Both the position numbers and the translations under genes were made by a program. From Anaerolineae bacterium (GTDB taxonomy: Bacteria; Chloroflexota; Anaerolineae; Fen-1058), in assembly GCA_035693785.1 (NCBI GenBank), contig DASSFZ010000212.1:4647-68646 (forward strand): 64,000 nucleotides of DNA. Reading direction: 5' to 3'. Below the pieces are notes generated by a model, which saw nothing but the letters and a program-made list of their open reading frames with translations, did no database searches and was not told where the DNA came from. Shown in pieces: positions 8,226 through 24,241 of this stretch. Position 1 is the first letter of the stretch. Every line of letters begins with the position of its first letter.

Positions 8226-8261
8226 CCCCCCCGCCTTACGGTGTATCGAAGAGCGACTCGA

Positions 8262-8555: not shown

Positions 8556-9884
8556 TCACGCTGGCTGTCGTTCAAGCGCGTACGTTTCCTGCTTCGCCTC
8601 GGCGCACAAGCGCGCGACGCGGCAGGCCTCGCTCGAAGGGCTATTCGGATTGCCGTCTTCCATCTCGGCCAACGCCGGGCAGCGACGGCAGTAATCCGAC
8701 CATGCGCAAGCGTGGCAGGCTTCGGGCGTGCAGAAAAACTCGGACGCCCGGAATGCTTCCAACTCGGCCCCGCGCCAGATATCTTCAAACGCCTGCTCAC
8801 GCAGGTTCCCAAAGGAACGCCGCACCAGCTCGCAGGGATAAACATCACCGAATGGTGAGATGCGCGCTTTAGTGGTGGCGGCTGTGCATACGCTTCGCCG
8901 GCGCACCAGCTTGCCCTGCCGCGCCAGATCCAGCACCCAGTCATCCGAAATACGATAATCCAGTGGCGCGAGTGAGCCGTTGACGTTTGGCAGCAGGTGA
9001 ACATTCAGAGCAAAGCCCACCTGCCATTGCTCGCACAGCCGGCGCAGGGCATCTTCCTCACGGACGTTGTGATACGTGGCATTGAAGATCACGTAAACGT
9101 TTGCGCCGGCTTGAGCCAGATACTCGATACCCCGGCAGGCCCGGCGAAACGATCCATTCACAGCGGTGAATGCATCGTGCGTGGACGGGCGCGCGCCGTG
9201 CAGGCTGACCTGCACCGTACACCAGCGCGCCAGCAGGTCTGCGTACGCCGGTGTGATCAACGTGGCATTCGTCAAAACCAGAATGGCAAACCGGCGCTCG
9301 TGGGCGAGCCGGATGAGCTGCTCCAGGTCGCGACGCGCGAAGGGTTCGCCGCCCGTGAAGCACAAGAACAGCGTCCCCGCTTCAGCCAGTTGATCAAGAA
9401 TCGATTGAACTTCTGATGTATTCAAAACCCGGTGGTTGTCTTTGGCCGTGTAGCAATACACGCAATCCAGATTACAGGCGTAGGTCGTCTCAAAATCAAC
9501 ACGAAATGGAACCCGCTGTCGCTTAACCTCGGTGATGACGAGCTCCGGCTGCCAACGCGTCGCTTCGCGGAATGACCGGCGCACGCCGCCAGTTTCGCCA
9601 TCGGCCGTGACAATCGAGCGGTCGTATAGCGAACGGACGAACTTGCACACATCCTGCGCGACCTGCGCGAGAGGCACGGCAAACTGGTCGCTGAGTGAAG
9701 CGGCGATTTCGCGCAACGGTGTCTGGCGCGTCAAATGCCCCCAAATCAACTCGCCGACGCCGGTCAGTTTGCTCGTTTCGCCAGTGCGCAGCGCGTAGAC
9801 ATAGACGCTGTCCCCCACTTTGCGGTAAGCGACATCATCCCTGAGCGCGATTTGTCTATCCAGCCAATTCAGATCGGCTTCCAT
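8556..9884 (-). CDS. Radical SAM/SPASM peptide maturase with N-terminal PqqD/RRE-like domain (rSAM-3)
   Basis: TYACNLDCVYCY (CxxxCxxC). SPASM cysteines are CTAATTKARISPFGDVYPCE ... CHACAWSDYCRRCP. PqqD-like segment is VYVYALRTGETSKLTGVGELIWGHLTRQTPLREIAASL. Start moved from 10139 to ATG 9884 (MEADLNWL); the exact start is uncertain. Confidence 0.88.
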   Translation of the reverse strand: MEADLNWLDRQIALRDDVAYRKVGDSVYVYALRTGETSKLTGVGELIWGHLTRQTPLREIAASLSDQFAVPLAQVAQDVCKFVRSLYDRSIVTADGETGGVRRSFREATRWQPELVITEVKRQRVPFRVDFETTYACNLDCVYCYTAKDNHRVLNTSEVQSILDQLAEAGTLFLCFTGGEPFARRDLEQLIRLAHERRFAILVLTNATLITPAYADLLARWCTVQVSLHGARPSTHDAFTAVNGSFRRACRGIEYLAQAGANVYVIFNATYHNVREEDALRRLCEQWQVGFALNVHLLPNVNGSLAPLDYRISDDWVLDLARQGKLVRRRSVCTAATTKARISPFGDVYPCELVRRSFGNLREQAFEDIWRGAELEAFRASEFFCTPEACHACAWSDYCRRCPALAEMEDGNPNSPSSEACRVARLCAEAKQETYALERQPA

Positions 9885-9979
9885 GCTCACCCCATCTCTC
9901 AACTGGCGCCAACGACGAGTGCCCTCCGCCCCGCGCGCCTTCACCGGCTGACTCGGCAGGCCTGATCGCGAATGGATGC

Positions 9980-10034
9980 TTGCTACTAGCAACACTTGTA
10001 TCTGTATAGTATTGGGAAACCGCACGGCGCACAA
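9980..10034 (-). promoter_or_regulatory. Candidate sigma70-like promoter plus palindromic operator upstream of rSAM-3
   Basis: Minus strand: TTGTGC (10034..10029), 17 nt spacer, TACTAT (10011..10006). About 13 nt further downstream lies the perfect palindrome TTGCTAgTAGCAA (9992..9980). The stretch is locally AT-rich. The hexamers match the consensus only 3/6 and 4/6. Confidence 0.25.
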
Positions 10035-10125
10035 TGGCGCGCGGTCGAGTTCCGACCTAGACCCCAGTCTAGTTCGCGCCTCAAGCGATGTGCCGGCCAC
10101 TGGGCGTAAGCCGAACCACGACAGG

Positions 10126-10917
10126 TCAGATGCGCTCACGCATGCGGACGTAGTAGCGGCTCAGCACCACATCGGCCAGCCCTGGAAATGCTCGGAGGAA
10201 TGCAATCAGGGGGCGCCAGCTCGTCGGCAGGATGTCATGGCGACGCGGATGCCGGAGCAGTCTGGCAACGCGTTCGGCGACGACGTCGGAACACATCACG
10301 CCGCGCACGCGCTGGCCGTTGGCCAGCTTCTCGGCCGCGCGCCGCAGGCGTGGGCTGAAGTTGGTGGCGACAAAGCCTGGGCTTAGCACCGTCACGCGAA
10401 TGCCGCTGTCCTGCACTTCGCGCCGCAGCGCGTCGGAGAAACCGACGATCGCGGATTTGGTCGCGCAATAGATGCTGGCGCCCGGTATCCCGATCAGACC
10501 GGCGAGGGAAGCGACGTTGATGATGTGCCCCGACGACTGGCGCAGCATGGCCGGCAGCACCGCCTGCACGCAATCGATCACCGCGATCAGATTCACGTCG
10601 ATCTGTTCGCACACCTGGTCGGGATCCAGATCGATCACGCGCCGCGGGTAACTCAACCCGGCATTATTGACGAGCACATCCACGCGCCTCCACCGGTCGA
10701 GGGTGGCCTGGACCATGTGCTGGATGGCCGCGCGATCGCGCACGTCGGTCGGGACGACGAGGGCGCGCGTCTCGTCGCCGATTGCAGCGGCCACCCGTTC
10801 GAGTTCTTCTCGTCGCCGCGCGGCCAGCGTCACACACATTCCGTCACGCGCCAGGCGACGCGCCGTTGCCTCGCCAATTCCACTCGATGCGCCTGTCACG
10901 ATAGCCACTTTGTCCAC
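10126..10917 (-). CDS. Short-chain dehydrogenase/reductase (SDR)
   Basis: VTGASSGIGEATARRLA Rossmann motif and YCATKSAIVGFSDAL (YxxxK). GTG start with AGGAG 6 nt upstream. Confidence 0.88.
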   Translation of the reverse strand: MDKVAIVTGASSGIGEATARRLARDGMCVTLAARRREELERVAAAIGDETRALVVPTDVRDRAAIQHMVQATLDRWRRVDVLVNNAGLSYPRRVIDLDPDQVCEQIDVNLIAVIDCVQAVLPAMLRQSSGHIINVASLAGLIGIPGASIYCATKSAIVGFSDALRREVQDSGIRVTVLSPGFVATNFSPRLRRAAEKLANGQRVRGVMCSDVVAERVARLLRHPRRHDILPTSWRPLIAFLRAFPGLADVVLSRYYVRMRERI

Positions 10918-10975
10918 GATCGACTCCTACGTTGGCCGCTTGCGCGTCGATCCGACGCCTGGGCGGCGCGGCACC

Positions 10976-12406
10976 TCAAGCGCGAGCGACCGACCTTTTA
11001 GTCCGCGCCGCTTTGACGACGGCCACTGCTCGCTTGATCGGCGCGCCGACGGCTGCGTGTCGCCAGGCAGGCCCTGTCGTCCCCAGGCGTGTGCCCAGGC
11101 GCATGATAGCCTTGGCGATGGCCGAATCGCGTTGACGCGGGGCGAGCCAGGTCGGTTCCCGCCGCGCGTGATTCAAGACTCGCTCCATCATCTTCGGCGC
11201 AAGCTCTGGTGACAAATAGAAACGCGGTTCCAGCAGATCGTCGTCCGAGAACGCCCCCCCTTCCTGTTGGAGCACCTCGGCCAGGCCGGTGGCCGGAAAG
11301 ATGCGCAGTCCGAATGAATACGTCACGGCCGTGGCGCGCATCTTGCCAATGGCTGTCAACGTCTCCTCGATCGTTGTCGCCGTCTCGCCTAGCCCGCCGA
11401 AGATCAGATGGAAGAGGAACGGCAACCTGGCCTGGCAGCAGCCCTCACTGCAGGCGGCTACGTCGTCCAGCGTGAACCCCTTGCGCAACCGATGCAGCAT
11501 CCCATCGTTTGCCGCGTCGATGCCCAGCTCGACGCCGCTGCAGCCGGCGCGCCTCATCAGGCAGGCCAGCTCGGGCGACAGCGAGGACGGGTTGGCTCCG
11601 CACACCCAGTGCAGGTCGAGCCTGCGCCGCAGTATCTCCTCGCAGATCGCCGCAGCGTGATCCGGCGGATACGTGAACACCGCATCCACGAAATGGATCT
11701 TCTTCACGCCGGCGCGCGCCAATCGCTCCAACTCTTCGCCTACGTTCTGCGGAGAGCGCAGCCGCACGTCTCGCCCCTCGATCACGGGGTAGTTGCAGTA
11801 CAGGCACCGAAACGGGCAACCCCGCTTGGTCTGGACGTTAACCGCGCTGCCTGCCAGCTCGTACGTCCGGGAGACTGCCCGATCGCGCGTGGGAATGGGC
11901 AAAGCATCGAGATCGCGCACACGAGCCGGTGGCTGCCTGTCGCCTGGCGAGTCGCGGTTCGTCACAACGCCTGGGACACGATGCGGGTCACCGCACGCCA
12001 GCCACAACGGGAACGCCTCTTCGCCTTCGCCGACAATCCCGATTTGCAGGTCCAAGAAGCGCAGTATGGCCTGAGGAAAGATGGAGAAGCCCGACCCGCC
12101 GGCCACGATGGGCGCATGGAACGCCTGACGGCAGGCATCGACGATAGGGCGTATCGCAGGCAGGTAACGCACGGGCGCATCGTAAGTCAGGTTGTCGATG
12201 TTTCGGATGGACAGGCCGATGCAATCCGGCTTGAACGTCTGCACGGCATCGCGCGCGACCTGCGCCGCATCCTTTGCAAAGCACAGGTCCAGCAGGCGCG
12301 TCTCGATGCCCCGCTGTCGCAGGCTGGCATCCACATAGGCGAGTCCCAGCGGCAGGACCGGATAGGGCGACTGCTCCCGATTGGTGTAGATGAGCAAGAC
12401 TCTCAT
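10976..12406 (-). CDS. B12-binding domain radical SAM enzyme (class B type)
   Basis: N-terminal MRVLLIYTNREQSPYPVLPLGLAYVDASLRQRGIETRLLDL is B12-binding-domain-like. It is followed by TKRGCPFRCLYCNYP (CxxxCxxC). The ATG at 12406 overlaps the upstream KS stop (ATGA). Confidence 0.85.
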   Translation of the reverse strand: MRVLLIYTNREQSPYPVLPLGLAYVDASLRQRGIETRLLDLCFAKDAAQVARDAVQTFKPDCIGLSIRNIDNLTYDAPVRYLPAIRPIVDACRQAFHAPIVAGGSGFSIFPQAILRFLDLQIGIVGEGEEAFPLWLACGDPHRVPGVVTNRDSPGDRQPPARVRDLDALPIPTRDRAVSRTYELAGSAVNVQTKRGCPFRCLYCNYPVIEGRDVRLRSPQNVGEELERLARAGVKKIHFVDAVFTYPPDHAAAICEEILRRRLDLHWVCGANPSSLSPELACLMRRAGCSGVELGIDAANDGMLHRLRKGFTLDDVAACSEGCCQARLPFLFHLIFGGLGETATTIEETLTAIGKMRATAVTYSFGLRIFPATGLAEVLQQEGGAFSDDDLLEPRFYLSPELAPKMMERVLNHARREPTWLAPRQRDSAIAKAIMRLGTRLGTTGPAWRHAAVGAPIKRAVAVVKAARTKRSVARA

Positions 12407-13674
12407 GCCACTGGCTTCCTGTACACGACGGCATTGTTGCGCCCGAAAAACGAGATCGTGTTTTGCAGGATCGTCCGAATGGGAATTGCCCGGCCCACGT
12501 TCGGCACGTAATCCAGATCGCATTCGGGATCAGGCTCGCGATAGTTGATCGTCGGGGGCACGAAACCGTGCTCCATCACTAACGCGCACGTCACCGCCTG
12601 CATGATCCCGGCCGCGCCCTGCGTATGCCCGAGCATCGACTTGATCGCGCTGACCGGCACGCGACACGCCGCTTCACCAAACACGTTCTTGATCGTCTTG
12701 GTCTCGTTGACGTCGTTCAACTGTGTACTGGTACCGTGCGCGCATACGTAATCCACCTCGTCAGGCTGTACGCCCGCCTCGTGCAACGCCAGGCGCATGG
12801 CCCGCGCCGACTGTTCGCTCGTCGGGCTGGGAGCCGTCATGTGATAAGCATCCGCCGACGCGCCGTAGCCGGCCACCTCCGCGTAGATATGCGCGCCGCG
12901 CCGCCGGGCATGCTCCCACTCTTCCAGCAGGATCACGCCTGCGCCCTCGCCCATCACGAATCCGTTGCGCGTACGGTCGAAGGGACGCGACGCGCGTTCC
13001 GGCTCATCGTTGTGCTGCGACAGCACGTTGAGCATCGCGTAACTGTAGAAGATGTAGGGCTGGATCGGCGCCTCTGCGCCGCCTGCGATCATCAAGTCGG
13101 CCTCGCCATACTGGATCTGGCGAAAAGCGTAGCCCACTGCATCGGTGGACGACGCGCACGCTGCGGCGGTGACCGTGCTATCACCCTGCAGGCCGAACAT
13201 CCCGTTCACGCTCAGCGCCACCTGTCCCAAGAAAGTGGTCAAGACGTGACGCGCGCAGCGCTGCGCCTCCGCTTCGTCGCCACGGGCGGCTGCGGCGAAC
13301 AAGTCGTCCAAAAGAGGCAGACGCGCTTCCAAATCCCCCGCCGCCGAACCGATGCTCACCCCAGCACGCGTCCGATCTTCGGCGTCGAGCTGCACATCGG
13401 CATCGGCCAGCGCCTGCTGGGTCGCAACCAGCATGAATTGATTCGCGCGATCGGCTTGATCGGTCCAACGCGCAACGGCGGCGGCATCCAGATAGCGGCG
13501 CACATCGAAGACCTTCACTTCGGCAGCCATCGTGGAGCGGTAGCCGCTGGCATCGAACGCCTGGATCGGCCCTGCACCGGAGCGACCCGCCTTGAGGTTC
13601 TCCCAGAAGTCGCGTTTGCCGATCCCAATCGGCGACACGATCCCCACGCCGGTCAGCGCCACACGTCTAGCCAT
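12403..13674 (-). CDS. Beta-ketoacyl-ACP synthase (KS, FabF-like, full Cys-His-His triad)
   Basis: Active-site AAACASSTDAVGY, CAHGTSTQLND and LGHTQGAAG. The start overlaps the upstream CLF-like gene by 8 nt. Confidence 0.92.
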   Translation of the reverse strand: MARRVALTGVGIVSPIGIGKRDFWENLKAGRSGAGPIQAFDASGYRSTMAAEVKVFDVRRYLDAAAVARWTDQADRANQFMLVATQQALADADVQLDAEDRTRAGVSIGSAAGDLEARLPLLDDLFAAAARGDEAEAQRCARHVLTTFLGQVALSVNGMFGLQGDSTVTAAACASSTDAVGYAFRQIQYGEADLMIAGGAEAPIQPYIFYSYAMLNVLSQHNDEPERASRPFDRTRNGFVMGEGAGVILLEEWEHARRRGAHIYAEVAGYGASADAYHMTAPSPTSEQSARAMRLALHEAGVQPDEVDYVCAHGTSTQLNDVNETKTIKNVFGEAACRVPVSAIKSMLGHTQGAAGIMQAVTCALVMEHGFVPPTINYREPDPECDLDYVPNVGRAIPIRTILQNTISFFGRNNAVVYRKPVA

Positions 13675-14968
13675 CGGCAGGATCTCCTTCGCGCCAGCGC
13701 TTGTAGACGAGCGCGCCGCACTTGCCCAGGACAGATAGGCTGTTGTGTAGGATCACGGCGGGCGAGGCTGCCCGCGCCTGGTTGGGCACGTAATCCAGGT
13801 CGCACATCGGATCCGGCTGGCTGTAATTGATTGTCGGCGGCAGCAAGCCGCGCCCCAGCGCCAGACAGCAGCTCGCCGCTTGCAGCGCGCCGTCGGCGCC
13901 CAACGTATACCCGAATATGGGCTTGATGGAACTGACCGGCACGTCGTACGCGTGTTCGCCCAGAGCCTGCTTGATGGCCAGCGTCTCCCGGATGTCGCCC
14001 GCTTGAGTGCCGATGCCGTGCGCGGCGATGAACTCGACGCAGTCAGGAGCCAGGGCCGCATCCGCCAGCGCCATGCGCATGGCGAGGCTGGTATCGCCTG
14101 GCGCGTCGTGCGCCGGCAGGTCGTTGGCGGGCAGGCACGTCGCGGCATAGCCGGCCAGTTCGGCGTAGACGTGCGCGCCGCGCCGCAGCGCATGCTGCAT
14201 CTCTTCCAAGACGAGAATGGCCGCACCCTCGCCGAGCACAAACCCGTCCCGCCCGGCATCGAACGGCCGGCAGGCGCGCTCTGGCTGATCGTTGCGGCGC
14301 GACAGCAAGCCGAGGCCGTCGAACAGGATTAGCGACGAATGCAGGATCGGCGCTTCGCTGCCGCCAGCGATCATGACATCGGCCTCGTCGTACTTGATCT
14401 GCCGATACGCATAGCCCAGCGCATCCATGCCGGCGGTCTCGGCGGCGTAGACCGTCACGCCCGGCCCGCGCAACTGAAAATTGACCGTGATGTTGCCGAA
14501 CGACGCGCCGCTGCTGCCGATGATGCACGACAGGGCGTTCATCTTGTGAATGCCGCCTGTCTGGATGCGCTCTATCTCGCCGCGCGCCATACGGATCGGG
14601 CCGGCAAACGTGCCGATGCTCGTGCCTGCGCGTTCGGAGTCGCTCGGGGTGAGGGTGAGATCGGCATCCTCCATCGCCATCTGGGCGGCCGCATACGCAA
14701 AGCCCGACACGCGCTCCATGAAGCGCGCCTGCTTGCGGTCGGTGTAATCGTTGATGGAGAAGCCATCCACGCTGGCTGCGATGTGCACGCGCTGGCCCGG
14801 CCGAGGCTCAAGCGTGCGGATCGGCCCGGCGCACGAGCGGCCTTGACGGATGGCCTGCCAGAAGGCTTCTTTCCCGATGCCGGCCGGCGACACGACGCCA
14901 ATGCCGGTCACCACCACGCGGCGGCGCGCGTTTTGTCGTGTCGAGGCGTCATGTGTCAGCATAACCAT
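13667..14968 (-). CDS. Ketosynthase-like protein lacking the active-site Cys (chain-length-factor-like)
   Basis: KS fold throughout. The Cys position reads YAAETAGMDALGY and the second His motif reads FGYTLGADG. Start moved to ATG 14968 (MVMLTHDA...). Confidence 0.82.
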   Translation of the reverse strand: MVMLTHDASTRQNARRRVVVTGIGVVSPAGIGKEAFWQAIRQGRSCAGPIRTLEPRPGQRVHIAASVDGFSINDYTDRKQARFMERVSGFAYAAAQMAMEDADLTLTPSDSERAGTSIGTFAGPIRMARGEIERIQTGGIHKMNALSCIIGSSGASFGNITVNFQLRGPGVTVYAAETAGMDALGYAYRQIKYDEADVMIAGGSEAPILHSSLILFDGLGLLSRRNDQPERACRPFDAGRDGFVLGEGAAILVLEEMQHALRRGAHVYAELAGYAATCLPANDLPAHDAPGDTSLAMRMALADAALAPDCVEFIAAHGIGTQAGDIRETLAIKQALGEHAYDVPVSSIKPIFGYTLGADGALQAASCCLALGRGLLPPTINYSQPDPMCDLDYVPNQARAASPAVILHNSLSVLGKCGALVYKRWREGDPADG

Positions 14969-15399
14969 CCGATTTCCCCGTAGTGCAGATTCGCCGTCAT
15001 CAACAGCGCCAGCACCCGCTTCTGAGGATTGGGAGAGCGCCATAGTTCTTTGCGAAACTCGAGTTCGCGCTGGTGAATGCGGGTCTCGCTCATCAGCGGC
15101 CGCGAGCAACACAAGGGAGCCAGCAGGTCGAGATACTCGACGAGCTGGCCGACGGTGGAGATCTCGGCGGCGCGGGCCTCCAGCGTTTCCTCCCACGATG
15201 GATCGACGTACCGAAACACGTCGGCCTCGAACTCGCGCTCGATGGCGATTATGAGTTCCACGATGTCCAGCGAATCGGCGTCGAGGTCTTCGCGAAAACG
15301 GGCCTGGAGCGTCACGTCGTCCGGCGCGACATTGAGCGTATGCACAATGACATTTCGCATTCGCTCAAACGTGTTAAGCGAGTTCTTGCGTTCGCTCAT
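14956..15399 (-). CDS. Acyl carrier protein with ~55-60 aa C-terminal extension
   Basis: LDADSLDIVELIIAIEREF contains the DSL phosphopantetheine-attachment motif. Start ATG 15399 has GGAGAGAGG upstream. The ORF continues to 14956, giving 147 aa. Confidence 0.78.
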   Translation of the reverse strand: MSERKNSLNTFERMRNVIVHTLNVAPDDVTLQARFREDLDADSLDIVELIIAIEREFEADVFRYVDPSWEETLEARAAEISTVGQLVEYLDLLAPLCCSRPLMSETRIHQRELEFRKELWRSPNPQKRVLALLMTANLHYGEIGWLC

Positions 15400-15886
15400 C
15401 GGAACCTCTCTCCGCGCGCAGCCGCTCACCGGTGTGGTCGCCGGGCGACGCAATGACCACCTCGCCCTCGGCGACTGTCCCGCCGCCGGTGGTGATGCGA
15501 CCTTGAATCACCATCACGCCCAGGCAGGCTCGAATCACCGTCGCTTCGATGCGCAGCGAGTCGCCGGGCCGCGCCGGTTGGCGAAAGCGAAAGTTGCGAA
15601 TGCGCGCCAGGAAACCCAGGTAGGCAGTAGCCTCGTCGTCGTTCGACCCTGCCCGCAAGGCAATCCCGCCGACCTGCGCCACCATTTCGACCAGCAGAAC
15701 ACCCGGCACAATGGGATGATCGGGGAAGTGCCCGGCGAAGTACGGCTCGTTGATGCTAACGTTCTTGATCGCCACCGCGCGCCGTCCCGGCTCAACTTCG
15801 AGGACGCGATCGACGAACAGGAAGGGATAGCGGTGGGGAAGCAGCCGAAAGATATCCTGAATGTCCACGGCGTCCACCTCGCTCAC
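15374..15886 (-). CDS. fabZ: 3-hydroxyacyl-ACP dehydratase
   Basis: [14 protein letters not shown] and [28 protein letters not shown] (canonical FabZ His and Glu motifs). The GTG start overlaps the FabG stop (GTGA). Confidence 0.9.
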   Translation of the reverse strand: [170 protein letters not shown]

Positions 15887-16626
15887 ATGGCCAGACCGCC
15901 GTCCACTACCAGCACATGGCCGGTGATGTACTCGGCGGCCGGGCTGCTCAGGAAGACGACGGCTTTGGCCACGTCTTCAGGCCGGCCCAGGCGCTGGAGT
16001 GGAATCGCCTGCACAAACTTCTCCTGAACGTGAGCCGGAATCGCTTTCACCATCCGCGTGTCGATGAACCCCGGCGCGACGACGTTGACGGTGATGCGGT
16101 AGGTCGCCAGCTCGCGGGCGAGCGCTTTGCTCAGACCGATCAGGCCGGCTTTGGCCGCGCTGTAGTTGGCCTGACCGGCCTGCCCCATGATCCCGCTGAT
16201 CGAGGCGACGTTGATGATGCGACCAGCCCGCTTTTTCATCATGGTCTTGGCGACGGCACGCGCGCAGTGAAACGCGCCCTTGAGGTTGATGTCGAGGACG
16301 TGGTCCCAGTGCTCGTCGCTCATCATCAGCAGCAGCCGATCGGCGGTAACCCCGGCGTTGTTCACCAGCACGTCGACACGGCCCCAGCGGTCGAGCACGG
16401 TCTTGACCATCGACCTGACCGCACCAGCGTCCGCCACGTCGGCGCACACGGCGACGCCCTCACCGCCGGCAGCGGCGACGTCGGAGACGAGCCGATCCGC
16501 GCTCGCCGCATCGCACACGTAGTTCACGGCCACGCTGGCGCCTTCTTGGGCGAGCGCCAAACAGATAGCGCGTCCGATCTCGCCGGTTCCGCCGGTGACC
16601 AACGCCACGCAGCCCGATAGCCTCAT
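15883..16626 (-). CDS. fabG: 3-oxoacyl-ACP reductase
   Basis: ALVTGGTGEIGRAICLALA and NYSAAKAGLIGLSKALA. Start moved to ATG 16626, which overlaps the FabI stop by 1 nt. Confidence 0.88.
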   Translation of the reverse strand: MRLSGCVALVTGGTGEIGRAICLALAQEGASVAVNYVCDAASADRLVSDVAAAGGEGVAVCADVADAGAVRSMVKTVLDRWGRVDVLVNNAGVTADRLLLMMSDEHWDHVLDINLKGAFHCARAVAKTMMKKRAGRIINVASISGIMGQAGQANYSAAKAGLIGLSKALARELATYRITVNVVAPGFIDTRMVKAIPAHVQEKFVQAIPLQRLGRPEDVAKAVVFLSSPAAEYITGHVLVVDGGLAM

Positions 16627-17417
16627 CACGCTTCCTTCACCGGCTCCGGCAGGCGAATGCCCAGGATGTTGAAGCCGCCGTCGACATACACCACTTCGCC
16701 GGTCACGGCGCCGGACAGATCGCTGCACAGCCACACGGCCGTCTTGCCCACGTCCTCGATGGTGACGCGCCGCCGCAGCGGGGCGATGTCCTCGAAAGTG
16801 CGAAACAGCGTCTTGAAACCGGTCACGCCGGCCGAAGCCAGCGTGCGAATCGGCCCGGGGCTGATGGCGTTGACGCGTATATGGCGCGGCCCCAAGTCGC
16901 AGGCCAGATAGCGCACGCTCGCTTCGAGCGCGGCCTTGGCCACACCCATCACGTTGTAGTGCGGCATCACTTGCCGGCTGCCGTGGAAGGTGAGGGTGAG
17001 GACGCTGCCGCCCGGGTTCATCAACGGCGCGGCGGCCCGCACCAGAGCCGTGAGCGAATAGGCGCTGATGTCGAGCGCCAAGTGAAAACCCTCGCGCGAG
17101 GTGTCGAGGTACGGCCGGTTGAGATCGTCGCGATTGGCGAAGGCGACGCTATGCACCAGGAAGTCCAGCGTCCCGAACGCCTGACGCGCTTTCTCAAACA
17201 GCGTCGCGATGTCCGCGTCGCGCGTCACGTCGCACGGCTCGACGAACTCGGCCCGCAGGCTGCGCGCCAGCGGCCGCACGCGTCGCTCCAGCGCGGGCAC
17301 GGCGTAACTGAAGCCGAGTGTCGCGCCCTCCGCGTGCAGAGCCTGGGCGATGCCCCAGGCAATGCTGTGATCGTTTGCCACGCCGAAGATCAGGCCTTGC
17401 TTGCCGCTGAGTAACAC
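16626..17417 (-). CDS. fabI: Enoyl-ACP reductase
   Basis: [36 protein letters not shown] and [18 protein letters not shown] are typical FabI motifs. GTG start with GAGGAGG upstream. Confidence 0.88.
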
Positions 17418-17563
17418 AGCGCCTCCTCGCTCTCACAGTGCATCCGACATGTCATTCTGAGGCACGAAGCGCCGAAGAATCTCTGTTTTCGCGGCCCGAC
17501 ATGAGACACTTCGCTCGCTGCGCCCGCCCAGAGTGACGGCTGCACGGAGTCTTAAGACACACT

Positions 17564-18805
17564 CTAAATCGCCGCGCGTTGCAGGATCAGGCACGCGTTT
17601 TGCCCGCCGAAGCCTGCCGAGTTGGAGAGCGCCACATCTACCCGGGCCTGACGCGCTGTGTTCGGTACGTAATCCAGGTCGCACTCCGGATCCGGATACT
17701 CGTAGTTGATCGTGGGCGGCAGCACGCCGTCGCAGATCGCTTTCACGCAGATCATCGCCTCCACCGCGCCGGCAGCGGCAATCAGGTGGCCTGTCATCGA
17801 CTTGGTCGAGCTGACCGGCACTCGCTGGGCATGCTCGCCGAACACCGACTTGATGGCGCGCGTCTCGATCGCGTCGTTGAGCGACGTCGAGGTGCCGTGC
17901 GCGTTAATGTAGTCCACGTCCTGCGGCGAGAGCCGGGCCTTGCGCAGCGCGAGATGCATAGCCCGCGCCAGGCCCTCGCCGTCCTCCGGAGGCGCGGTGA
18001 TGTGGTAAGCGTCGGCCGTCGCCGCATAGCCCACCAGCTCGGCGTATATGCGTGCGCCGCGCGCCTGCGCGTGCTCAAGCTCTTCCAGGATCACCACGCC
18101 CGCTCCCTCGGCCAGCACGAAGCCGTCGCGCCAGGCATCGAACGGGCGGCTGGCGCGCGTCGGCTCGGCGTTGCGCCGTGAGAGCGCGCGCATGGCGCTG
18201 AATCCGGCAACGGTCAGCGGCCCGACCGAGGCTTCCGTCCCGCCCGCGATCATCACGTCGGCGTCGTCGCGCCGGATGATCTCCGCTGCCTCGCCGATGG
18301 CGTGTGCGCCGGTGCTGCACGCCGACATGACGCAGAAATTCGGTCCCTTCACGCCCAGCGCCATGGCGATCTGGCTGGAAGCCATGCTGCTGATCCACAT
18401 CGGCACCAGCAACGGGTGGATGCGCTTGGGACCGTGTTCGAGCATCACGCGGAATTGCTCGAAGAGCGTGGTCGTGCCGCCTTTGCCGCTGCCGATAATC
18501 ACGCCGGTTCGCTCAGCGAGGCCGTTGTCGAAGCACAGACCCGTCTCCTGCACGGCTTGAAACGCGGCGGCCATCGCGTATTGCACAAACGGATCGAGTC
18601 GCCGCGCCTGCTTCGCGCCCAGAATGGACGCCGGGTCGAAGTCCTTGATTTCGGCCCCGATGTGGACGTCCCACTCCGAAGTGTCGAACTTCGTGATGAG
18701 GCCGACACCGGATTGCCCCGCGCACAGGGCTGACCACAGCGACGGAACGTCGGGCCCCAACGACGTCAACGCTCCCATACCGGTGATGACCACACGTCGA
18801 GTCAT
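17564..18805 (-). CDS. Beta-ketoacyl-ACP synthase II-like (full triad)
   Basis: MSACSTGAHAIGEA, NAHGTSTSLND, MTGHLIAAAG. Confidence 0.92.
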   Translation of the reverse strand: MTRRVVITGMGALTSLGPDVPSLWSALCAGQSGVGLITKFDTSEWDVHIGAEIKDFDPASILGAKQARRLDPFVQYAMAAAFQAVQETGLCFDNGLAERTGVIIGSGKGGTTTLFEQFRVMLEHGPKRIHPLLVPMWISSMASSQIAMALGVKGPNFCVMSACSTGAHAIGEAAEIIRRDDADVMIAGGTEASVGPLTVAGFSAMRALSRRNAEPTRASRPFDAWRDGFVLAEGAGVVILEELEHAQARGARIYAELVGYAATADAYHITAPPEDGEGLARAMHLALRKARLSPQDVDYINAHGTSTSLNDAIETRAIKSVFGEHAQRVPVSSTKSMTGHLIAAAGAVEAMICVKAICDGVLPPTINYEYPDPECDLDYVPNTARQARVDVALSNSAGFGGQNACLILQRAAI

Positions 18806-18834
18806 GTCATCTCACCTTCTTTCTCAAACGCAAC

Positions 18835-20097
18835 TCAAGCCGGCGCGGCGCCGTGCCCGTTGCGCCACTTGCCGAAGATTAGGCTCGCGTTGTGCCCACC
18901 GAATCCGGCCGAGTTGGACAGCGCTACGTCGACGCGGCGCACCAGGGGCTGGTTGGGCACGTAGTTCAAGTCGCAAGCCGGGTCCCGATACTCGTAGTTG
19001 ATCGTCGGCGGAATTATGCCGTCGTTGATGGCGCGCAGGCAGAAGATGGCCTCCACCGCGCCGGATGCGCCCAGTAGATGACCGGTCATCGACTTGGTCG
19101 AGCTGACCGGCAGGTCGTAAGCGTACTCACCGAAGACGCCCTTGAGCGCCAGCGTCTCGACGCGATCGTTGAGCGGCGTCGACGTGCCATGCGCGTTGAC
19201 GTAATGGACGTCTTCGGGCGCCAGGCCGGCCTTGTTCAGCGCAATGCGGATGGCGCGCACCAAACCGTCGCCACCCTCCACCGGAGCGGTGATGTGATGC
19301 GCGTCGGCCGTCGCGCCGTAACCCAGCAGCTCGCCGTAGATGCGCGCGCCGCGTCGCTGCGCGTGCTCGGCCGACTCGAGCACGAGCACGCCGGACCCTT
19401 CGCCGATGACGAACCCGTCGCGTTGGGCGTCGAACGGCCGGCTGGCATGCACCGGGTCATCGTTGCGACGCGAGAGCGCGCGCATGGCCGTGAAGCCGGC
19501 CACGCAAATGGGGTGGAGCGAGGCATCGCTGCCGCCTGCAATCATCACATCGGCGTCGCCGCGCCGGATGACCTCGGCGGCCTCGCCGATCGAATGTGCG
19601 CTGGTGCAGCACGCCGAGACAATGGCGAAGTTGGGTCCCTTGGCGCCCACCCGCATGGCAACGTGAGCCGACGCCATATCGCAAATCATCATCGGGATCA
19701 GGAAGGGACTGACCCGTTCCGGCCCGTAACGATCGAGCGTCCGCAGCTCGTCGCACAGGGTGATGGTGCCGCCTTTGCCCGAACCGATCAGCACGCCGAC
19801 CCGCTCGGCGTCGACCTCGTCCATCTTCAGCCCGGCGTCGGCAACGGCGCGGTCGGCTGCGTACAGCGCGTATTGCACAAATCGATCGAGTCGCCGGGCC
19901 TCCTTGCGGCTGCAACAGACGGCTGCATCGAAGTCGCGTACCTCGGCGGCGATCTGGCTGTCGAAAGGCGTGGGATCGAACGATTGAATGCGCCGCACGC
20001 CGGAGCGACCTTCGAGCAGCGCCGTCCACACTTCGTCCACTTCATGCCCCAGCGAGATCAAAATACCCATGCCGGTGACAACCATGCGTCGGCTCAT
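18835..20097 (-). CDS. Beta-ketoacyl-ACP synthase II-like (full triad)
   Basis: VSACCTSAHSIGEA, NAHGTSTPLND, MTGHLLGASG. Start moved to ATG 20097 (GGAGAT upstream). Confidence 0.92.
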   Translation of the reverse strand: MSRRMVVTGMGILISLGHEVDEVWTALLEGRSGVRRIQSFDPTPFDSQIAAEVRDFDAAVCCSRKEARRLDRFVQYALYAADRAVADAGLKMDEVDAERVGVLIGSGKGGTITLCDELRTLDRYGPERVSPFLIPMMICDMASAHVAMRVGAKGPNFAIVSACCTSAHSIGEAAEVIRRGDADVMIAGGSDASLHPICVAGFTAMRALSRRNDDPVHASRPFDAQRDGFVIGEGSGVLVLESAEHAQRRGARIYGELLGYGATADAHHITAPVEGGDGLVRAIRIALNKAGLAPEDVHYVNAHGTSTPLNDRVETLALKGVFGEYAYDLPVSSTKSMTGHLLGASGAVEAIFCLRAINDGIIPPTINYEYRDPACDLNYVPNQPLVRRVDVALSNSAGFGGHNASLIFGKWRNGHGAAPA

Positions 20098-20126
20098 ACG
20101 CCCGATCTCCAATCAGGTCGGCCAGG

Positions 20127-20558
20127 TCAACGTGCGGATTCGTCGCGGGGCATGCTCAAGACGACTTCACCTTCGGCCACCAGGTCGTCGCCGGCCTTCA
20201 CCTGGCCGCGCACGCAGACAAACCCACGTCGCCCAGCAGCGACTTCGACTTCGAGTGTCAAGGCGTCTCCCGGCCCAGCCGGGCGAACGATGTGAAAGTT
20301 CTCGATGCTCGCCAGGTAGCCGGCGCGCCCGGCGGCATCCGTTCCCAGCGACGCAGTCAGCCGACCCGCCTGGGCAATCGCTTCGATCAGCCACACACCG
20401 GACCAGTCAGGCGCGCTCGTCGCCAGCGGCTCGCCGATGCTAATCACATTGCGGGCCACGCCGCGCCGGCCCGGCTCAATCGCGAGCACGCCGTCGACGC
20501 GCAGCATCGGCGGTCGGTGCGGCAGGACGGCCAGCACGTCGGCGCTATACAGGTTCAA
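20127..20558 (-). CDS. FabZ/FabA-like hotdog-fold protein lacking the catalytic His motif
   Basis: VLPHRPPMLRVDGV and WLIEAIAQAG are retained. The GHFP segment is replaced by ATSAPDWSG. Confidence 0.75.
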   Translation of the reverse strand: MNLYSADVLAVLPHRPPMLRVDGVLAIEPGRRGVARNVISIGEPLATSAPDWSGVWLIEAIAQAGRLTASLGTDAAGRAGYLASIENFHIVRPAGPGDALTLEVEVAAGRRGFVCVRGQVKAGDDLVAEGEVVLSMPRDESAR

Positions 20559-22302
20559 CGGTTGCTCCGCATGTGCACCACGACCGCAGATAAGTCTGGA
20601 GCGCCTCCACGTAGCGCTGAAAGTCGCTCAAGGCCTCTGGCGATCCGGCCGTGTGCGCGCCATTGAGCGTTGGGCCAGGATCCGCGCCGAGACCGATGAG
20701 CAGCCGGCGCAGCGCCGCGTTGTCCAGCCGGAGGGCCACGTCGGCCCCATCCGCCTGCGCCGAAAACGCCTGGACCTCGCCCTGCACAATGGCCAGGCTT
20801 CCAGAACCGATGTCTGTGTCCATCCGAACCGTCGTCGAGTACGCAGGGAACTGCTGCGCCAGGTGTGCATTGACCAGCGGCTTGAGCACGGCGATGAGCT
20901 CCGACCATTCAGCCAAGGTGGCAGGGACGCAGTAGTGGTGCAGCAGCGTCGGCCAGGCGCTCTTGAGCAGGCCTTCGCGCACCACGTCGCGCGCAGTCTT
21001 GATACCCGCCGGATTGAACACCTGGATGAGTTTAGCCAGATGAGGGTTCTCGGCGCGCAGACGGGTCCACATGCGAGGCAGCGCGAACTCCTGGCGCAAG
21101 TAGTACGCCTTGTACAATTCGCGGAGCGTCGCGTAGGCCGATTCGGGCGACACGTCTTCACCACACACCCGGTGATGCGGGTTGTAATCTTCCCAATCGT
21201 GCGCGAGCAGCAGCCCTTTGCGCCGGCACTCGTCGTATAACGGCGTGCCTGGGTACGGTGTGGCGAACCCGATCTGTGCGAATTCGAGATCGAGCTCGCG
21301 CGCGAATTCGATCATCGACCAGCGTTGGGCGCGATCCGGCTGAAGCCCGTCGATCAGCAGCGTCGCCCACAGTGCAACATCGCACTCGTGCAACGCCTGG
21401 ACGGCCTGGCGTAGGTTGTCGCGGCGAGATGCGTCGGCCACGTCGCACGGCTGCACCGTCAGCAACTGTACGACGAAGCCCGCTTCGCGCATCTTGGCGA
21501 CGATCTCTGGCTGTTGTCGGATCGCCAGGACATCGGCATGACACCACATCCAGGGGCGCACTTGGCGCTGGATGAGCTCCTCGCAGATATGGCGCACACG
21601 GCCGATGTCGGCCATGAAGTGATCGTCGAGCACCATGATCAGCTCGGCACCCCGGCTCACCAGGTCGGCGATCTCGCCGACGACGCTAGCGGCCGAGCGC
21701 GCCCGCCAGCCGCTCGTCGGGCTGCCCCGGCTGCTCTCGATAGCGTCCAGCCGCTTGCCGAAGGCCGTGTACCGGGCGCGGTCGCAGATTCGGGCCGGCA
21801 GGTGCGCGTCGAGATCGGGCAGCGGGGACGCAGCAGGCGTACTGACAACCGCTCCGTCGTCCCGATAGCACAATCCGGCCACCTGGCGGGGATCCGCGCC
21901 CGATACCAGCTGGCGGAATGCGATTTCGCCCTCACCCTGGACGACGAAGTCCACGCATCCGGACGCGATGATCTCCGGCGCGACGGCGGTTGTCGCAGCG
22001 CCACCCATGGCGATCGGCGCCGACAGCCCGGCCTGCTTGAGCTGGCGTGATAGGGCCACCGCGGTTGCCACCCAGGGGAGCGCCAGCGCGGTCAGGCCCA
22101 CCCAGTCCGGCTGAAAGGCTTCCGCCTCTCCAACCACGTCGCTCGCATCCAAGCCATCCGCTTCAGCATCCAGAATTCTGACCTCGGCCTCCGGTGGCGG
22201 GCTGGCAGCCAGGTACTCCAGCGCCAGCGGTGGAAGGCGGGCGGCATCCGGATTCCACAGACTATGTGCCGGTCGCGGCGGATTGATCAGAAGGACTCTC
22301 AT
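20545..22302 (-). CDS. B12-binding-domain radical-SAM-like protein without the CxxxCxxC cluster motif
   Basis: N-terminal MRVLLINPPRPAHSLWNPDAARLPPLALEYLAAS is B12-domain-like. Where class B rSAMs have SRGCPxxCxFC, this protein reads ESSRGSPTSGWRARSAASVVGEI. Confidence 0.75.
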   Translation of the reverse strand: MRVLLINPPRPAHSLWNPDAARLPPLALEYLAASPPPEAEVRILDAEADGLDASDVVGEAEAFQPDWVGLTALALPWVATAVALSRQLKQAGLSAPIAMGGAATTAVAPEIIASGCVDFVVQGEGEIAFRQLVSGADPRQVAGLCYRDDGAVVSTPAASPLPDLDAHLPARICDRARYTAFGKRLDAIESSRGSPTSGWRARSAASVVGEIADLVSRGAELIMVLDDHFMADIGRVRHICEELIQRQVRPWMWCHADVLAIRQQPEIVAKMREAGFVVQLLTVQPCDVADASRRDNLRQAVQALHECDVALWATLLIDGLQPDRAQRWSMIEFARELDLEFAQIGFATPYPGTPLYDECRRKGLLLAHDWEDYNPHHRVCGEDVSPESAYATLRELYKAYYLRQEFALPRMWTRLRAENPHLAKLIQVFNPAGIKTARDVVREGLLKSAWPTLLHHYCVPATLAEWSELIAVLKPLVNAHLAQQFPAYSTTVRMDTDIGSGSLAIVQGEVQAFSAQADGADVALRLDNAALRRLLIGLGADPGPTLNGAHTAGSPEALSDFQRYVEALQTYLRSWCTCGATVEPV

Positions 22303-22349
22303 CGCTGGGCCTACCCGTCCGAAGTATCAGGGCGTCGCACGGCGAGTCA

Positions 22350-23846
22350 TTAGGCGCGGGCCAGCGCATTCCGGCGCTGCATGTCCTTTTCACGATGAAA
22401 GATGTTGTAGTTGCAGAACGGCATCATGCGCCCGTCGGTCGTGAGGACGTGATAGCAGCATTTCATCGCCCGGCTCTGGTCGTAGGTGCTGGGATCCATG
22501 AAGCCGTGGACGCCGATCATCTTGCCCATGCCGACCAGCGTCTTGTCTTTGGCGTAAGCCGCCGCGCAGCAGCTGAGCGCCCGTCCCACTTTCTCGGACT
22601 CCATCACCGCCGAGGCTGACCATAGCGTCTCCAGGTTCGATTGCAGATCGCGCATCCACTGCTCGCTGTTGAACAGCAGCCGGTTTTGCAGGTAGTTCAG
22701 CATCTTGTCGGCCTGGGTGATGCGGGCCAGCGAGACCCAATCGTTCGGCCCGGCCTTCAGGAAGTAGCCCACCGCCGAGCAGGAGGGGTGCGAGCACGGG
22801 ATGGATACAAAATCCTCCTTGGTCATCAAGCCGTCCATCTGAGCCTCGAGCAGGTTCAGGATCGTCGTCAGTGTGATGTGACGCTGCATGTCGTGCGGCA
22901 GATGGTTGGAGAGCGCGTCGCCACAATAGATCAGCGGCTGCAGCGTCAGCGAGTGGATGAAGTCGTTCTCCAACACCAGCCGAATCGTCTCGCCGACGGC
23001 ATCCTCGTTGAGGTCTTGCGCGATGGTGGTGATCAGCAGCGTCTTGACGTTGTACTTAGCCAGATGGTCGAAGGCCAAGCGCTTCATCTTGCTGAGATCG
23101 GCGCCGCGCAGCCGCCTGTAAGTCTCCGCTTTGAACCCATCGAACTGCAACTGGATGTAGGCCCCGGTCTCGGCGATGCGGCGGACGAACTCTTCGTCGC
23201 GGGCGAGGCGCAGGCCGTGCGTGTTGACGGCCACCTTGGTGGCGACGGGATGGTTGATCGCAATGTCCAGCAGCTCGAAGAATTGCGGATGCACGGTCGG
23301 CTCGCCGCCGGTCAGGCACACGATCTCCGCGCGGCCCTCGGCCTGCGCCAGACGATCGAGCATGAAGGTCATTTGCTCCGGCGACAGATACCAGGCATGC
23401 TGATTCCGGGCGAAGCAGATCGGGCAATGCAGATCGCAGTGATCGGTAATCTCGATCAGAGGATAGCAGGTGTGCTGCTGGTGATCGTCGCACAGGCCGC
23501 AGTCCTCGGGACACTGCGTTTTGCGCTGTGTGGCGTGCCACAGCGGAATGGTGCCAGGCTTGGTCCGGCTGAGCGCGTGCAGCCACCAGTCTGCGTCGGC
23601 AGCCATGAGCGCCTCGAAGTGACCGTGCTCCGGGCAAAACTTGCGCATGAACACCTGGCCGTCGCGGAAGAGGATCTGCGCGTTGATCAGCGCCAGGCAC
23701 TCCGGACACGTGCTACGCGTGATGCCGAAGAAGATGTGGTCCTGATCCTGTCTGGTATTCGCTCGCTCGATTGCCGCTTGAACCGGGTCATGGACTTGAG
23801 CGCCTAGCGGGACAACCGGCGCGTCGACGGGGACGGTCGTACTCAT
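22350..23846 (-). CDS. Radical SAM enzyme with N-terminal zinc-ribbon/rubredoxin-like motif (COG1964, MJ0619/Tes-like architecture)
   Basis: TRSTCPECLALINAQILFRDGQVFMRKFCPEHGHF, followed by ITDHCDLHCPICFA (CxxxCxxC). Start moved to ATG 23846 (AGGAGG upstream). Confidence 0.8.
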   Translation of the reverse strand: MSTTVPVDAPVVPLGAQVHDPVQAAIERANTRQDQDHIFFGITRSTCPECLALINAQILFRDGQVFMRKFCPEHGHFEALMAADADWWLHALSRTKPGTIPLWHATQRKTQCPEDCGLCDDHQQHTCYPLIEITDHCDLHCPICFARNQHAWYLSPEQMTFMLDRLAQAEGRAEIVCLTGGEPTVHPQFFELLDIAINHPVATKVAVNTHGLRLARDEEFVRRIAETGAYIQLQFDGFKAETYRRLRGADLSKMKRLAFDHLAKYNVKTLLITTIAQDLNEDAVGETIRLVLENDFIHSLTLQPLIYCGDALSNHLPHDMQRHITLTTILNLLEAQMDGLMTKEDFVSIPCSHPSCSAVGYFLKAGPNDWVSLARITQADKMLNYLQNRLLFNSEQWMRDLQSNLETLWSASAVMESEKVGRALSCCAAAYAKDKTLVGMGKMIGVHGFMDPSTYDQSRAMKCCYHVLTTDGRMMPFCNYNIFHREKDMQRRNALARA

Positions 23847-24068
23847 GGTTCCTCCTGTTTGGCACAGCGAGTTCCTGGCAACTGCAGGTGAACTGCGCGA
23901 TTCCGCCGGAACGGGAATAGCTATCGAACTCGGATCGAAACGGCGGGTCACACCCTTGCCGGCGAGTAGAGTTCAGCCATCTTCGTGTTATTAGCGGAAT
24001 GGCAACGACGACTCGGAGCTGTCTTTGAAGAGAGTATGCGATGCGGCGCAGGCAAGCAACAGCGGAAA

Positions 24069-24135
24069 GTCGAGTTTGAACCTCGACCGGAGTTTAGATC
24101 GCTACAGCCTAGTTTTAGATTGCAGTCGAGGTCGA
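24069..24135. promoter_or_regulatory. Cluster of short direct and inverted repeats in the divergent intergenic region (rSAM operon <-> hlyD-like gene)
   Basis: GTCGAG-tttgaac-CTCGAC (24069-24087). AGTTTAGAT (24091-24099) and AGTTTTAGAT (24111-24120). GTCGAGGTCGA (24125-24135). CCTCGAC...GTCGAGG brackets the two AGTTT(T)AGAT copies. Confidence 0.3.
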
Positions 24136-24241
24136 AACTCACCTGGGCGCGGTTGTGTCCGCCTGTGCGGTTTGGGTACGATGAGCACGAGAGGTTTTCG
24201 GGAGTGCCGAAGCGGACAGGCTGTACCCTGGAGAAAAACTG

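Follow-up and report, generated by a model that had tools for sequence, protein, structure and literature searches.

Homologues of the archaeal radical S-adenosylmethionine (SAM) enzyme Tes, or GDGT-MAS (GDGT, glycerol dialkyl glycerol tetraether), occur in hundreds of bacterial genomes, with the Chloroflexota among the richest, and have been both proposed as makers of lipids of the branched GDGT (brGDGT) type and invoked as the source of the brGDGT palaeoclimate biomarkers (PMC8941075, PMC11868695), with no activity demonstrated for any bacterial homologue (PMC11868695). A radical SAM enzyme that couples two fatty acids tail-to-tail into diabolic acids, Mss, has been described from Thermotoga, whose genomes contain no Tes homologue (PMC13159169). 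A second body of work concerns gene clusters in which a ketosynthase (KS) paired with a chain-length factor (CLF) stands beside a cobalamin-dependent radical SAM enzyme of the TIGR04072 family; these clusters are known from the debate on ladderane synthesis, and their product is not known (PMC10139942; bioRxiv 10.64898/2026.05.19.726425). In the anammox version, amxFabFmut and amxFabF2 form a KS/CLF-like heterodimer that decarboxylates malonyl-ACP (ACP, acyl carrier protein) and so initiates synthesis (bioRxiv 10.64898/2026.05.19.726425), and Rattray et al. reported an anammox lipid cluster to be syntenic with Desulfotalea, which makes no ladderanes (PMC2649909). Here we analyse a window, the whole 64 kb stretch of DNA under study, from a metagenome-assembled Anaerolineae bacterium (Chloroflexota), in which the Tes-like and TIGR04072-like families meet in one 13.7 kb operon-like array alongside genes that could build their substrate.

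We propose, with a probability of roughly 0.55, that the 13 genes of this array form a single operon encoding a dedicated, self-priming type II fatty-acid synthase (FAS), the saturated products of which would be tailored by radical chemistry at unactivated carbons. The evidence that we bring to this proposal, all of it observed, consists of the domain content of the genes, their catalytic motifs, their fold relationships, the operon-like structure of the array and the recurrence of parts of its gene order on other contigs.

Gene content and order

Open reading frame (ORF) calls combined with Pfam and NCBIfam searches place 13 ORFs between 10126 and 23846, all on the minus strand and with tight or overlapping junctions. 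In transcription order, the spacings calculated from the coordinates are +47, -14, +29, +29, +146, -1, -4, -26, -13, -8, -4 and +58 nt, such that 10 of the 12 junctions overlap or measure less than 50 nt. Three of the encoded proteins are identical to database entries from a 70.7 kb contig, namely the zinc-ribbon radical SAM protein (NCBI HET7088761.1), the cobalamin protein that follows it (HET7088760.1) and the cobalamin-dependent radical SAM protein near the end of the array (HET7088750.1), and the consecutive accessions from HET7088750.1 to HET7088761.1 fit the same 12 gene calls.

The centre of the array is a complete set of elongation functions. Two tandem FabF-type ketosynthases that are 63% identical, KS1 (18835-20097) and KS2 (17564-18805), score 607 and 614 bits on TIGR03150 against a cut-off of 494. 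These are followed by a FabI-type enoyl-ACP reductase (16626-17417; adh_short_C2 303 bits, and ∼340 bits on the FabI models, under their equivalog cut-offs), a FabG 3-oxoacyl-ACP reductase (15883-16626; TIGR01830 313 bits, cut-off 298) that is 46-49% identical to the ketoreductases (KRs) of TIGR04072-type clusters, a FabZ dehydratase that keeps both canonical residues, His and Glu (15374-15886; TIGR01750 154 bits, cut-off 155), and an ACP (14956-15399) with a PP-binding domain that scores 68 bits on the ACP models, slightly under their cut-offs. Since FabI is present, saturated chains are expected. The ACP is atypical: in alignments it retains the serine of the DSL motif and has a 7-residue insertion after helix II as well as a predicted C-terminal tail of ∼50 residues. 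At the level of the DNA, the ACP ORF continues for ∼50 codons past the normal ACP end (14956-15100) and overlaps the start of the next gene.

That next gene encodes KS3 (13667-14968), which has both the N- and the C-terminal KS domains, is full-length and scores 377 bits on the fabF model (cut-off 494). In alignments, KS1, KS2 and KS4 (12403-13674; 459 bits on the same model) have the Cys-His-His triad intact, and in KS3 the triad reads Glu/His/Tyr, with the catalytic Cys changed to Glu, the first His kept and the second His changed to Tyr. The KS3 gene lies directly upstream of the KS4 gene with an 8-nt overlap, and the two proteins are 44% identical. An active KS thus adjoins a paralogue that has no catalytic Cys, which is the arrangement of a KS/CLF pair, with Glu rather than the Gln of type II polyketide synthases (PKSs) at the CLF active-site position. 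On the alignment, and by analogy with amxFabFmut and amxFabF2, KS3 and KS4 plausibly constitute such a pair, and the array plausibly has no FabH because this pair can prime synthesis as the anammox proteins do.

Two further genes flank the elongation set. Upstream of KS1, a FabZ-like hotdog protein (20127-20558; NCBIfam FabZ 75 bits, cut-off 113) has, in alignment with FabZ homologues, lost the GHFP motif that carries the catalytic His and has retained the Glu. The last gene of the array encodes a classical short-chain dehydrogenase/reductase (SDR; 10126-10917) with TGASSGIG and YxxxK motifs, which scores 201 bits on adh_short and otherwise matches generic SDR models.

A preliminary description made from the sequence had reported 13 co-directional genes with short or overlapping junctions, a CLF-like KS and a KS, KR, dehydratase (DH), enoyl reductase and ACP set at this locus, and all three statements hold. 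It had also listed FabD, FabH, a phosphopantetheinyl transferase (PPTase), a thioesterase and a glycerolipid acyltransferase as missing, and the scanned ORFs of the window indeed contain none of these domains, nor any amine-oxidase or phytoene-dehydrogenase (PDH) domain. An Rfam scan of the window gave no matches. A promoter and terminator scan of 8000-24600 returned fewer matches than shuffled sequence, and neither supports the operon nor splits it.

Base composition varies slightly along the window. The FAS part (10126-22302) has a G+C content of 0.657, compared with 0.601 in the peptide-related unit downstream of the SDR gene and 0.616 in the rest of the window, and G+C at third codon positions (GC3) reaches 0.75-0.86 for the FAS genes, as against about 0.70-0.75 for the peptide unit and 0.70-0.81 elsewhere, with the zinc-ribbon radical SAM gene at a G+C of 0.616 yet a GC3 of 0.84. 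We considered horizontal transfer as an explanation and set it aside, because these contrasts are both slight and ambiguous.

The three radical-family genes

The first gene of the array (22350-23846) encodes a radical SAM protein with an N-terminal, rubredoxin-like zinc-ribbon (Pfam Zn_ribbon_HMPTM, PF23545, 65.3 bits against a cut-off of 27; Radical_SAM 68 bits). In a phmmer search it matches GDGT-MAS of Methanocaldococcus jannaschii (structure 7TOL) at E = 2e-56, with 34% identity over 307 aligned residues. The motifs CDLHCPIC, which belongs to the radical SAM cluster, and CPEDCGLC and CC-H...PFC-YN, which belong to predicted auxiliary clusters, align to the same motifs of 7TOL, giving a common set of CPxC...CPEHG, CPxDCGLC, CxLxCPxC and CCxH...PFCxYN, and the Cys3His zinc-ribbon residues C47, C50, C71 and H74 are invariant across the Tes-like clade. 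The AlphaFold2 model (pLDDT 69.5, pTM 0.76) matches 7TOL and 7TOM over the full length with TM-scores of 0.70-0.72 and E = 3e-30, and the next match reaches a TM-score of 0.35. By alignment and predicted structure, this protein is therefore a full-length structural homologue of archaeal Tes/GDGT-MAS, and it also falls within the BLAST-type criteria published for bacterial Tes homologues (PMC8941075). On the curated NCBIfam models it scores 260 bits for Tes (NF045702, cut-off 450) and 293 bits for TrsS (cut-off 490), a family without known function; further FAS-linked homologues from bacteria reach 257-315 bits on each of the two models.

The penultimate gene (10976-12406) encodes a cobalamin-dependent radical SAM protein with an intact CPFRCLYC motif (PF02310 53 bits, PF04055 82 bits). 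Its match to TIGR04072, defined as 'lipid biosynthesis B12-binding/radical SAM protein', spans model positions 1-438 of 443 with 344.9 bits against a cut-off of 360, which would make it a borderline member of the family; NCBI labels it merely 'radical SAM protein', and its nearest solved structure is TsrM (1.8e-36). Three relatives are closer, one at 100% identity, which is the same organism recovered from other samples, and two at 65% and 57%, and the next tier comprises hundreds of proteins at 40-45% identity, including named TIGR04072 members from Brocadia (42% identical to the window protein), Nitrospirota, Thermodesulfobacteriota and Acidobacteriota. In three TIGR04072 neighbourhoods (L064, L065 and L066; L numbers are our locus handles), at least one KS/CLF pair lies immediately upstream of the radical SAM gene, and close by are a KR, an ACP and a protein of hotdog fold, the latter being a FabA/ApeP-like dehydratase in L065 and L066 and a 4HBT-type thioesterase-fold protein in L064. 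An AMP-ligase, a radical SAM/SPASM protein, methyltransferases, an MMPL transporter, a phytoene-dehydrogenase-like oxidase and a GT2 glycosyltransferase are often present as well, and a fourth locus on a short contig (L150) shows just the AMP-ligase, the radical SAM/SPASM gene and the cobalamin radical SAM gene. The module of these loci matches the anammox lipid cluster of Rattray et al. (PMC2649909). The window has this same context, with FabZ, ACP, KS3 in the CLF position, KS4 and the radical SAM gene in series.

The second gene of the array (gene 2, 20545-22302) departs from this picture. Its CxxxCxxC loop has been lost through a 12-residue deletion, and Pfam recognises the B12-binding domain only, with no Radical_SAM match. 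The same deletion is found in a full-length relative, P0242, that is 55% identical, which argues for a conserved and functional protein that has no cluster. Gene 2 and P0242 are close to alone: an exhaustive HMMER search of 1.84 billion representative proteins returned P0242 and one fragment as the only close relatives, and a scan of genome contigs with the gene 2 protein gave 61 loci at no more than 34% identity over the best aligned segment, none with FAS synteny. The top Foldseek matches of its AlphaFold2 model, which is poor (pLDDT 56.8), are TsrM, AprD4, CysS, MgmA and TokK, suggesting that the fold remains that of a cobalamin-dependent radical SAM protein. Of the three radical-enzyme calls in the preliminary description, those for the zinc-ribbon protein and for the protein at 10976-12406 thus stand, whereas that for gene 2 does not. 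The same description had brought in Tes and the anammox ladderane clusters as analogies, and both have turned out to reflect homology, through the matches to 7TOL in the one case and to TIGR04072 (345 bits) and its Brocadia member in the other.

The next tier of gene 2 relatives consists of cobalamin-dependent radical SAM proteins of 650-820 residues that have their clusters intact and share with gene 2 a C-terminal extension. In one of these, P0274, the homologous C-terminal region matches the Pfam SCP2 domain with 27.1 bits (cut-off 21.3). The C-terminal 155 residues of gene 2 itself have no Pfam match at E values up to 10, and a profile built from 11 sequences of the extension, gene 2 included, retrieves SCP2 structures first (E = 0.001-0.004). 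Because the model of gene 2 is too poor at the C-terminal domain, its SCP2-like assignment rests on these sequence profiles. Taken together, the similarities suggest that gene 2 encodes a lipid- and cobalamin-binding accessory subunit, which would represent a new kind of degenerate class B radical SAM paralogue. Two of the intact-cluster relatives lie in lipid contexts, one beside a fatty-acyl-AMP-ligase-like (FAAL-like) gene (L151) and the other inside a KS/CLF-KR-DH-ACP cluster with three cobalamin radical SAM genes (L152; GCA_001655685.1, LYVF01000106.1). In the latter cluster, P0277 carries the SCP2-like extension and a second cobalamin radical SAM protein of 687 residues may do so as well; it further encodes a KR, an ApeP/FabA-like DH, an amine oxidase, an ACP, an RND pump, an SCP2-hexapeptide protein and a KS pair, the second KS of which is just 25% identical to KS1. 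The cluster looks like one more radical-lipid pathway of the uncharacterised kind.

Three further metagenomic contigs repeat parts of this gene order, with protein identities of 55-74%. On L067, the zinc-ribbon radical SAM gene (74%) is followed by the cobalamin/SCP2 gene (55%), a small ORF and the start of a KS gene. L068 has KS3 (61%), KS4 (68%) and the TIGR04072-like gene (66%) in series, and L069 has KS3, KS4 (59%) and the TIGR04072-like gene (58%), with a 67%-identical zinc-ribbon radical SAM protein in the same sample (L063). These recurring orders indicate that the arrangement is not due to chance. The SDR gene is not found after the TIGR04072-like gene in L068 or in L069. Among more distant loci, L062 has a bona fide TIGR04072 member (382 bits) two genes from its Tes-like gene (48% identity), and FabG, Tes-like, cobalamin radical SAM, CLF-like, KS and SDR genes stand in series in L076. 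In L096 and L103, KS genes and a DH gene adjoin a Tes-like gene and FabG, one KS being triad-less in L103 and both being intact in L096. The FAS-linked relatives L062, L076, L096 and L103 recur in soils and sediments. Of the 52 sampled Tes-like loci that are flanked by 4 kb or more, 10 have an SDR gene within 5 kb and 5 have a KS, DH or cobalamin-protein gene; the link between Tes-like genes and FAS genes is thus recurrent and restricted to a minority of loci. In a separate group of loci (L070, L071, L108 and L146), two Tes-like genes at 32-40% identity to the window protein stand in tandem, and in L108 and L146 the tandem pair adjoins FabG and FabZ homologues.

Proposed pathway and rival explanations

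The steps that we envisage follow the order in which a chain would be made. KS3 and KS4, acting as a KS/CLF heterodimer in the manner of amxFabFmut and amxFabF2, would decarboxylate malonyl-ACP on the cluster's own ACP and so prime synthesis with no need for FabH, and FabD and the PPTase would be borrowed from primary metabolism. KS1, KS2, FabG, FabZ and FabI, whose domains are all present, would then run full reductive cycles to give saturated chains, possibly with the His-less hotdog protein as a partner of FabZ. The TIGR04072-like enzyme would act on an sp3 carbon within the chain, C-methylation being the most likely modification, and the cluster-less cobalamin/SCP2 protein may bind or present the lipid or the cofactor. 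Homology and predicted fold suggest that the Tes-family enzyme joins inert alkyl carbons through a C-C bond, as archaeal Tes does, which would yield tail-coupled (bipolar) or cross-linked chains, and the terminal SDR could reduce a leftover carbonyl. The end product would most likely be a branched and/or membrane-spanning fatty-acyl lipid. Since no TIGR04072-type cluster and no bacterial Tes homologue has a known product (PMC10139942, PMC8941075, PMC11868695), we infer each of these chemical steps, and the product with them.

A more specific version, which we put forward tentatively and regard as rather unlikely in this full form, is that the operon makes membrane-spanning, methyl-branched alpha,omega-diacid chains, that is, diabolic or iso-diabolic-type cores like those of brGDGTs, in Chloroflexota. 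Here the Tes-like enzyme would couple the tails, the cobalamin radical SAM enzyme would add the mid-chain methyls and the cobalamin/SCP2 protein would serve as a lipid chaperone. If true, a bacterial Tes homologue would here be linked to the making of fatty acids within one compact genetic unit for the first time. That both enzyme families and the substrate-building genes share one operon makes the locus unusually tractable for heterologous expression.

The boundaries of the array bear on how it is read. Upstream lie a divergent HlyD gene and then unrelated transport genes; an ORF at 23948-24331 has no Pfam match at E values up to 10 and is probably not a gene. Downstream of the SDR gene comes a unit of three radical SAM/SPASM genes (two with PqqD domains), a MarR regulator (6073-6630), two PaaK-like proteins and an ABC ATPase. 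Between the SDR stop (10126) and the ATG at 9884, on the minus strand, lies a non-coding block (9980-10075) that aligns to positions 3060-3160 of L068, with CGCGCGCCATTGTG and CAAGTGTTGCTA-T-GCAA invariant in the two sequences and with a palindrome-containing CAAGTGTTGCTAGTAGCAA. From its sequence, this block is a candidate promoter and operator of the radical SAM/SPASM unit, at which the MarR regulator may possibly act. On L068, an orthologue of the PqqD-radical SAM gene (49% identity over 51 residues) directly follows the TIGR04072-like gene, and on L069 a permease gene takes this place. In view of the conserved block, we take the peptide unit to be a separately promoted yet conserved neighbour.

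Within the unit, two short minus-strand ORFs with strong ribosome-binding sites, MYAEPELITLDVGEEAEALKECAAAC (4308-4388, with GGAGG 8 nt upstream) and MFKLVVGKTRRTSGAVACGSGC (8262-8330, with AGGAGG 7 nt upstream), encode peptides that end in a C-terminal CxxxC. Judged by these features, both peptides are likely precursors for the PqqD-radical SAM-SPASM enzymes, leading to a ribosomally synthesized and post-translationally modified peptide (RiPP) or to a product in the style of pyrroloquinoline quinone (PQQ) or mycofactocin. The PaaK-like paralogues are proteins of ∼520 residues, also encoded on the minus strand: p516 (1146-2696) directly downstream of a radical SAM/SPASM gene, and p531 (4481-6076) downstream of another with the MarR gene between. 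They are 58% identical, share a TSGTT motif, have no Pfam match at E values up to 10 and none in NCBIfam, and are weakly similar to phenylacetate-CoA ligase (PaaK), AjiA1 and the AMP-binding protein of the Brocadia cluster. Farther away, between 34800 and 63500, genes of acyl-CoA metabolism are densely packed, with four AMP-binding ligases, two acyl-CoA dehydrogenases and a thiolase alongside SDRs, luciferase-like monooxygenases and two Liv-type ABC systems; the region is suggestive of the breakdown of fatty or organic acids, near the operon for lipid synthesis.

Several of the observations above weigh against reading the 13 genes as a dedicated synthase with radical tailoring. The TIGR04072-like protein falls 15 bits short of the family cut-off, and the Tes-like protein is under both of the curated cut-offs on which it was scored. 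The bacterial Tes-like clade has an invariant PCSHPxCS motif (C351 and C356) that faces non-Cys residues in 7TOL, such that its chemistry may differ from that of Tes, and most sampled Tes-like loci have no FAS genes nearby. The families concerned have no known bacterial product, and the window has no acyltransferase, thioesterase or ether-forming gene that would show where the chain goes. Two further points, the conserved peptide unit beside the operon in L068 and the scores of KS1, KS2 and FabG, which exceed the housekeeping equivalog cut-offs and could thus mark the cell's main FAS, lead to alternative explanations. The conserved neighbour is the reason that a link between lipid and peptide stays the main rival, with the locus cast as a hybrid cluster of the lipid-peptide (or peptide-cofactor) kind and the acyl chain made by the FAS and radical SAM genes joined to the Cys-tailed peptides, possibly by p516 and p531. 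The two peptides with their ribosome-binding sites, the three radical SAM/SPASM genes with two PqqD domains and an ABC ATPase, the TSGTT motif of the PaaK-like proteins with their weak similarity to PaaK and AjiA1, and the L068 order would all suit such a cluster. However, the domain scans recognised no GNAT, condensation or other acyl-peptide transferase, the promoter/operator-like block separates the two units, GC3 drops between the FAS genes (about 0.78-0.86) and the peptide unit (about 0.70-0.75), the permease of L069 stands where the peptide unit would be expected, and the operon's three radical-family genes have lineages in lipid contexts that are free of peptide genes. We consider a hybrid cluster unlikely on balance.

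The equivalog scores, together with a FabZ that sits at its cut-off and the fact that the 64 kb window shows no second FAS set, could also mean that the fab genes are simply a housekeeping FAS II operon, with the radical SAM and cobalamin genes as unrelated neighbours or as agents of general lipid maintenance. We regard this as improbable: the FabH and FabD that would accompany FabG and FabF in such an operon are not found among the scanned ORFs of the window, the plsX-fabH-fabD core that is usual in such operons is lacking, neither a KS/CLF pair nor an atypical ACP belongs to a housekeeping set, the fab genes overlap or abut the radical-family genes (by -14, -4 and -8 nt), and both the order zinc-ribbon radical SAM, B12/SCP2, KS and the order KS3, KS4, TIGR04072-like gene are kept on other contigs. 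A product of the ladderane or anammox/Desulfotalea TIGR04072 type, with polyunsaturated or cyclised chains and a Tes-like enzyme that cyclises rather than couples, has in its favour the module of ACP, FabZ, KS/CLF and cobalamin radical SAM enzyme that the locus has in common with anammox clusters, as well as the identity to the Brocadia member. FabI, however, points to saturated chains, the phytoene-dehydrogenase-like oxidase, MMPL transporter, methyltransferases and GT2 of L065 and L066 are missing here, the host belongs to the Anaerolineae and not to the Brocadiales, TIGR04072 is widespread beyond anammox bacteria, and Desulfotalea produces no ladderanes (PMC2649909). We therefore rejected ladderane synthesis as the main explanation and judge any product of this type to be very improbable. 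The reading that we prefer remains that of one operon for a self-priming FAS whose saturated chains are tailored by radical enzymes.

Comparison with described systems

Aryl-polyene (APE) clusters and type II PKSs with a KS/CLF pair resemble the locus in having an active KS with a dead paralogue, a discrete ACP, a KR and a DH. The window differs from them in having an enoyl reductase and in having no cyclase or aromatase, no aryl starter ligase and no APE export genes, and we dismissed an aryl-polyene or aromatic type II PKS reading on the grounds of the FabI and of the missing cyclase and starter ligase. Mss serves as a functional model only, for the proposed coupling of tails, and the published accounts that we found give it no FAS-like gene context.

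The resemblance to anammox Cluster I (kuste3603-3608, comprising amxACP, amxFabZ, amxFabF2, amxFabFmut, PDH and a cobalamin radical SAM enzyme) is closer. Both have an atypical ACP, FabZ and a cobalamin radical SAM enzyme, and in both a dead KS is encoded just upstream of an active one, amxFabFmut before amxFabF2 and KS3 before KS4. In contrast to Cluster I, the window has no PDH and thus not the full ladderane set in a Brocadiales host, and its host is not an anammox bacterium. The dead KSs differ as well, the anammox protein having Val or Thr plus Asn/Glu/Cys where KS3, full-length and 44% identical to its partner, has Glu/His/Tyr. With archaeal Tes/GDGT-MAS, the zinc-ribbon protein shares the zinc-ribbon, the radical SAM core and the CPxDCGLC and CCxH...C auxiliary motifs over its full length. 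It differs in its genetic context, which is type II FAS rather than isoprenoid ether-lipid synthesis, in scoring slightly better on TrsS than on Tes, and in the extra C351/C356 pair of the bacterial clade.

The preliminary description had not recognised the gene set as that of any described pathway. This stands in so far as our literature searches found no described cluster equivalent to this combination of genes and our locus searches found no characterised cluster syntenic with the operon, but it does not stand for the class to which the locus belongs. As in the TIGR04072-type clusters, the gene for a cobalamin radical SAM enzyme of the same family directly follows a KS/CLF pair, and the cluster further includes a KR, an ACP and a FabZ/ApeP-like DH. 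Unlike those clusters, the window has no amine-oxidase (PDH-like), MMPL, methyltransferase, GT2, acyltransferase or polysaccharide-deacetylase genes, and it adds two FabF proteins, FabI, FabZ, the Tes-family enzyme and the cluster-less cobalamin/SCP2 protein. The locus is thus a member, with additions of its own, of a recognisable, widespread and uncharacterised class of clusters, those with a TIGR04072 radical SAM gene after a KS/CLF pair.

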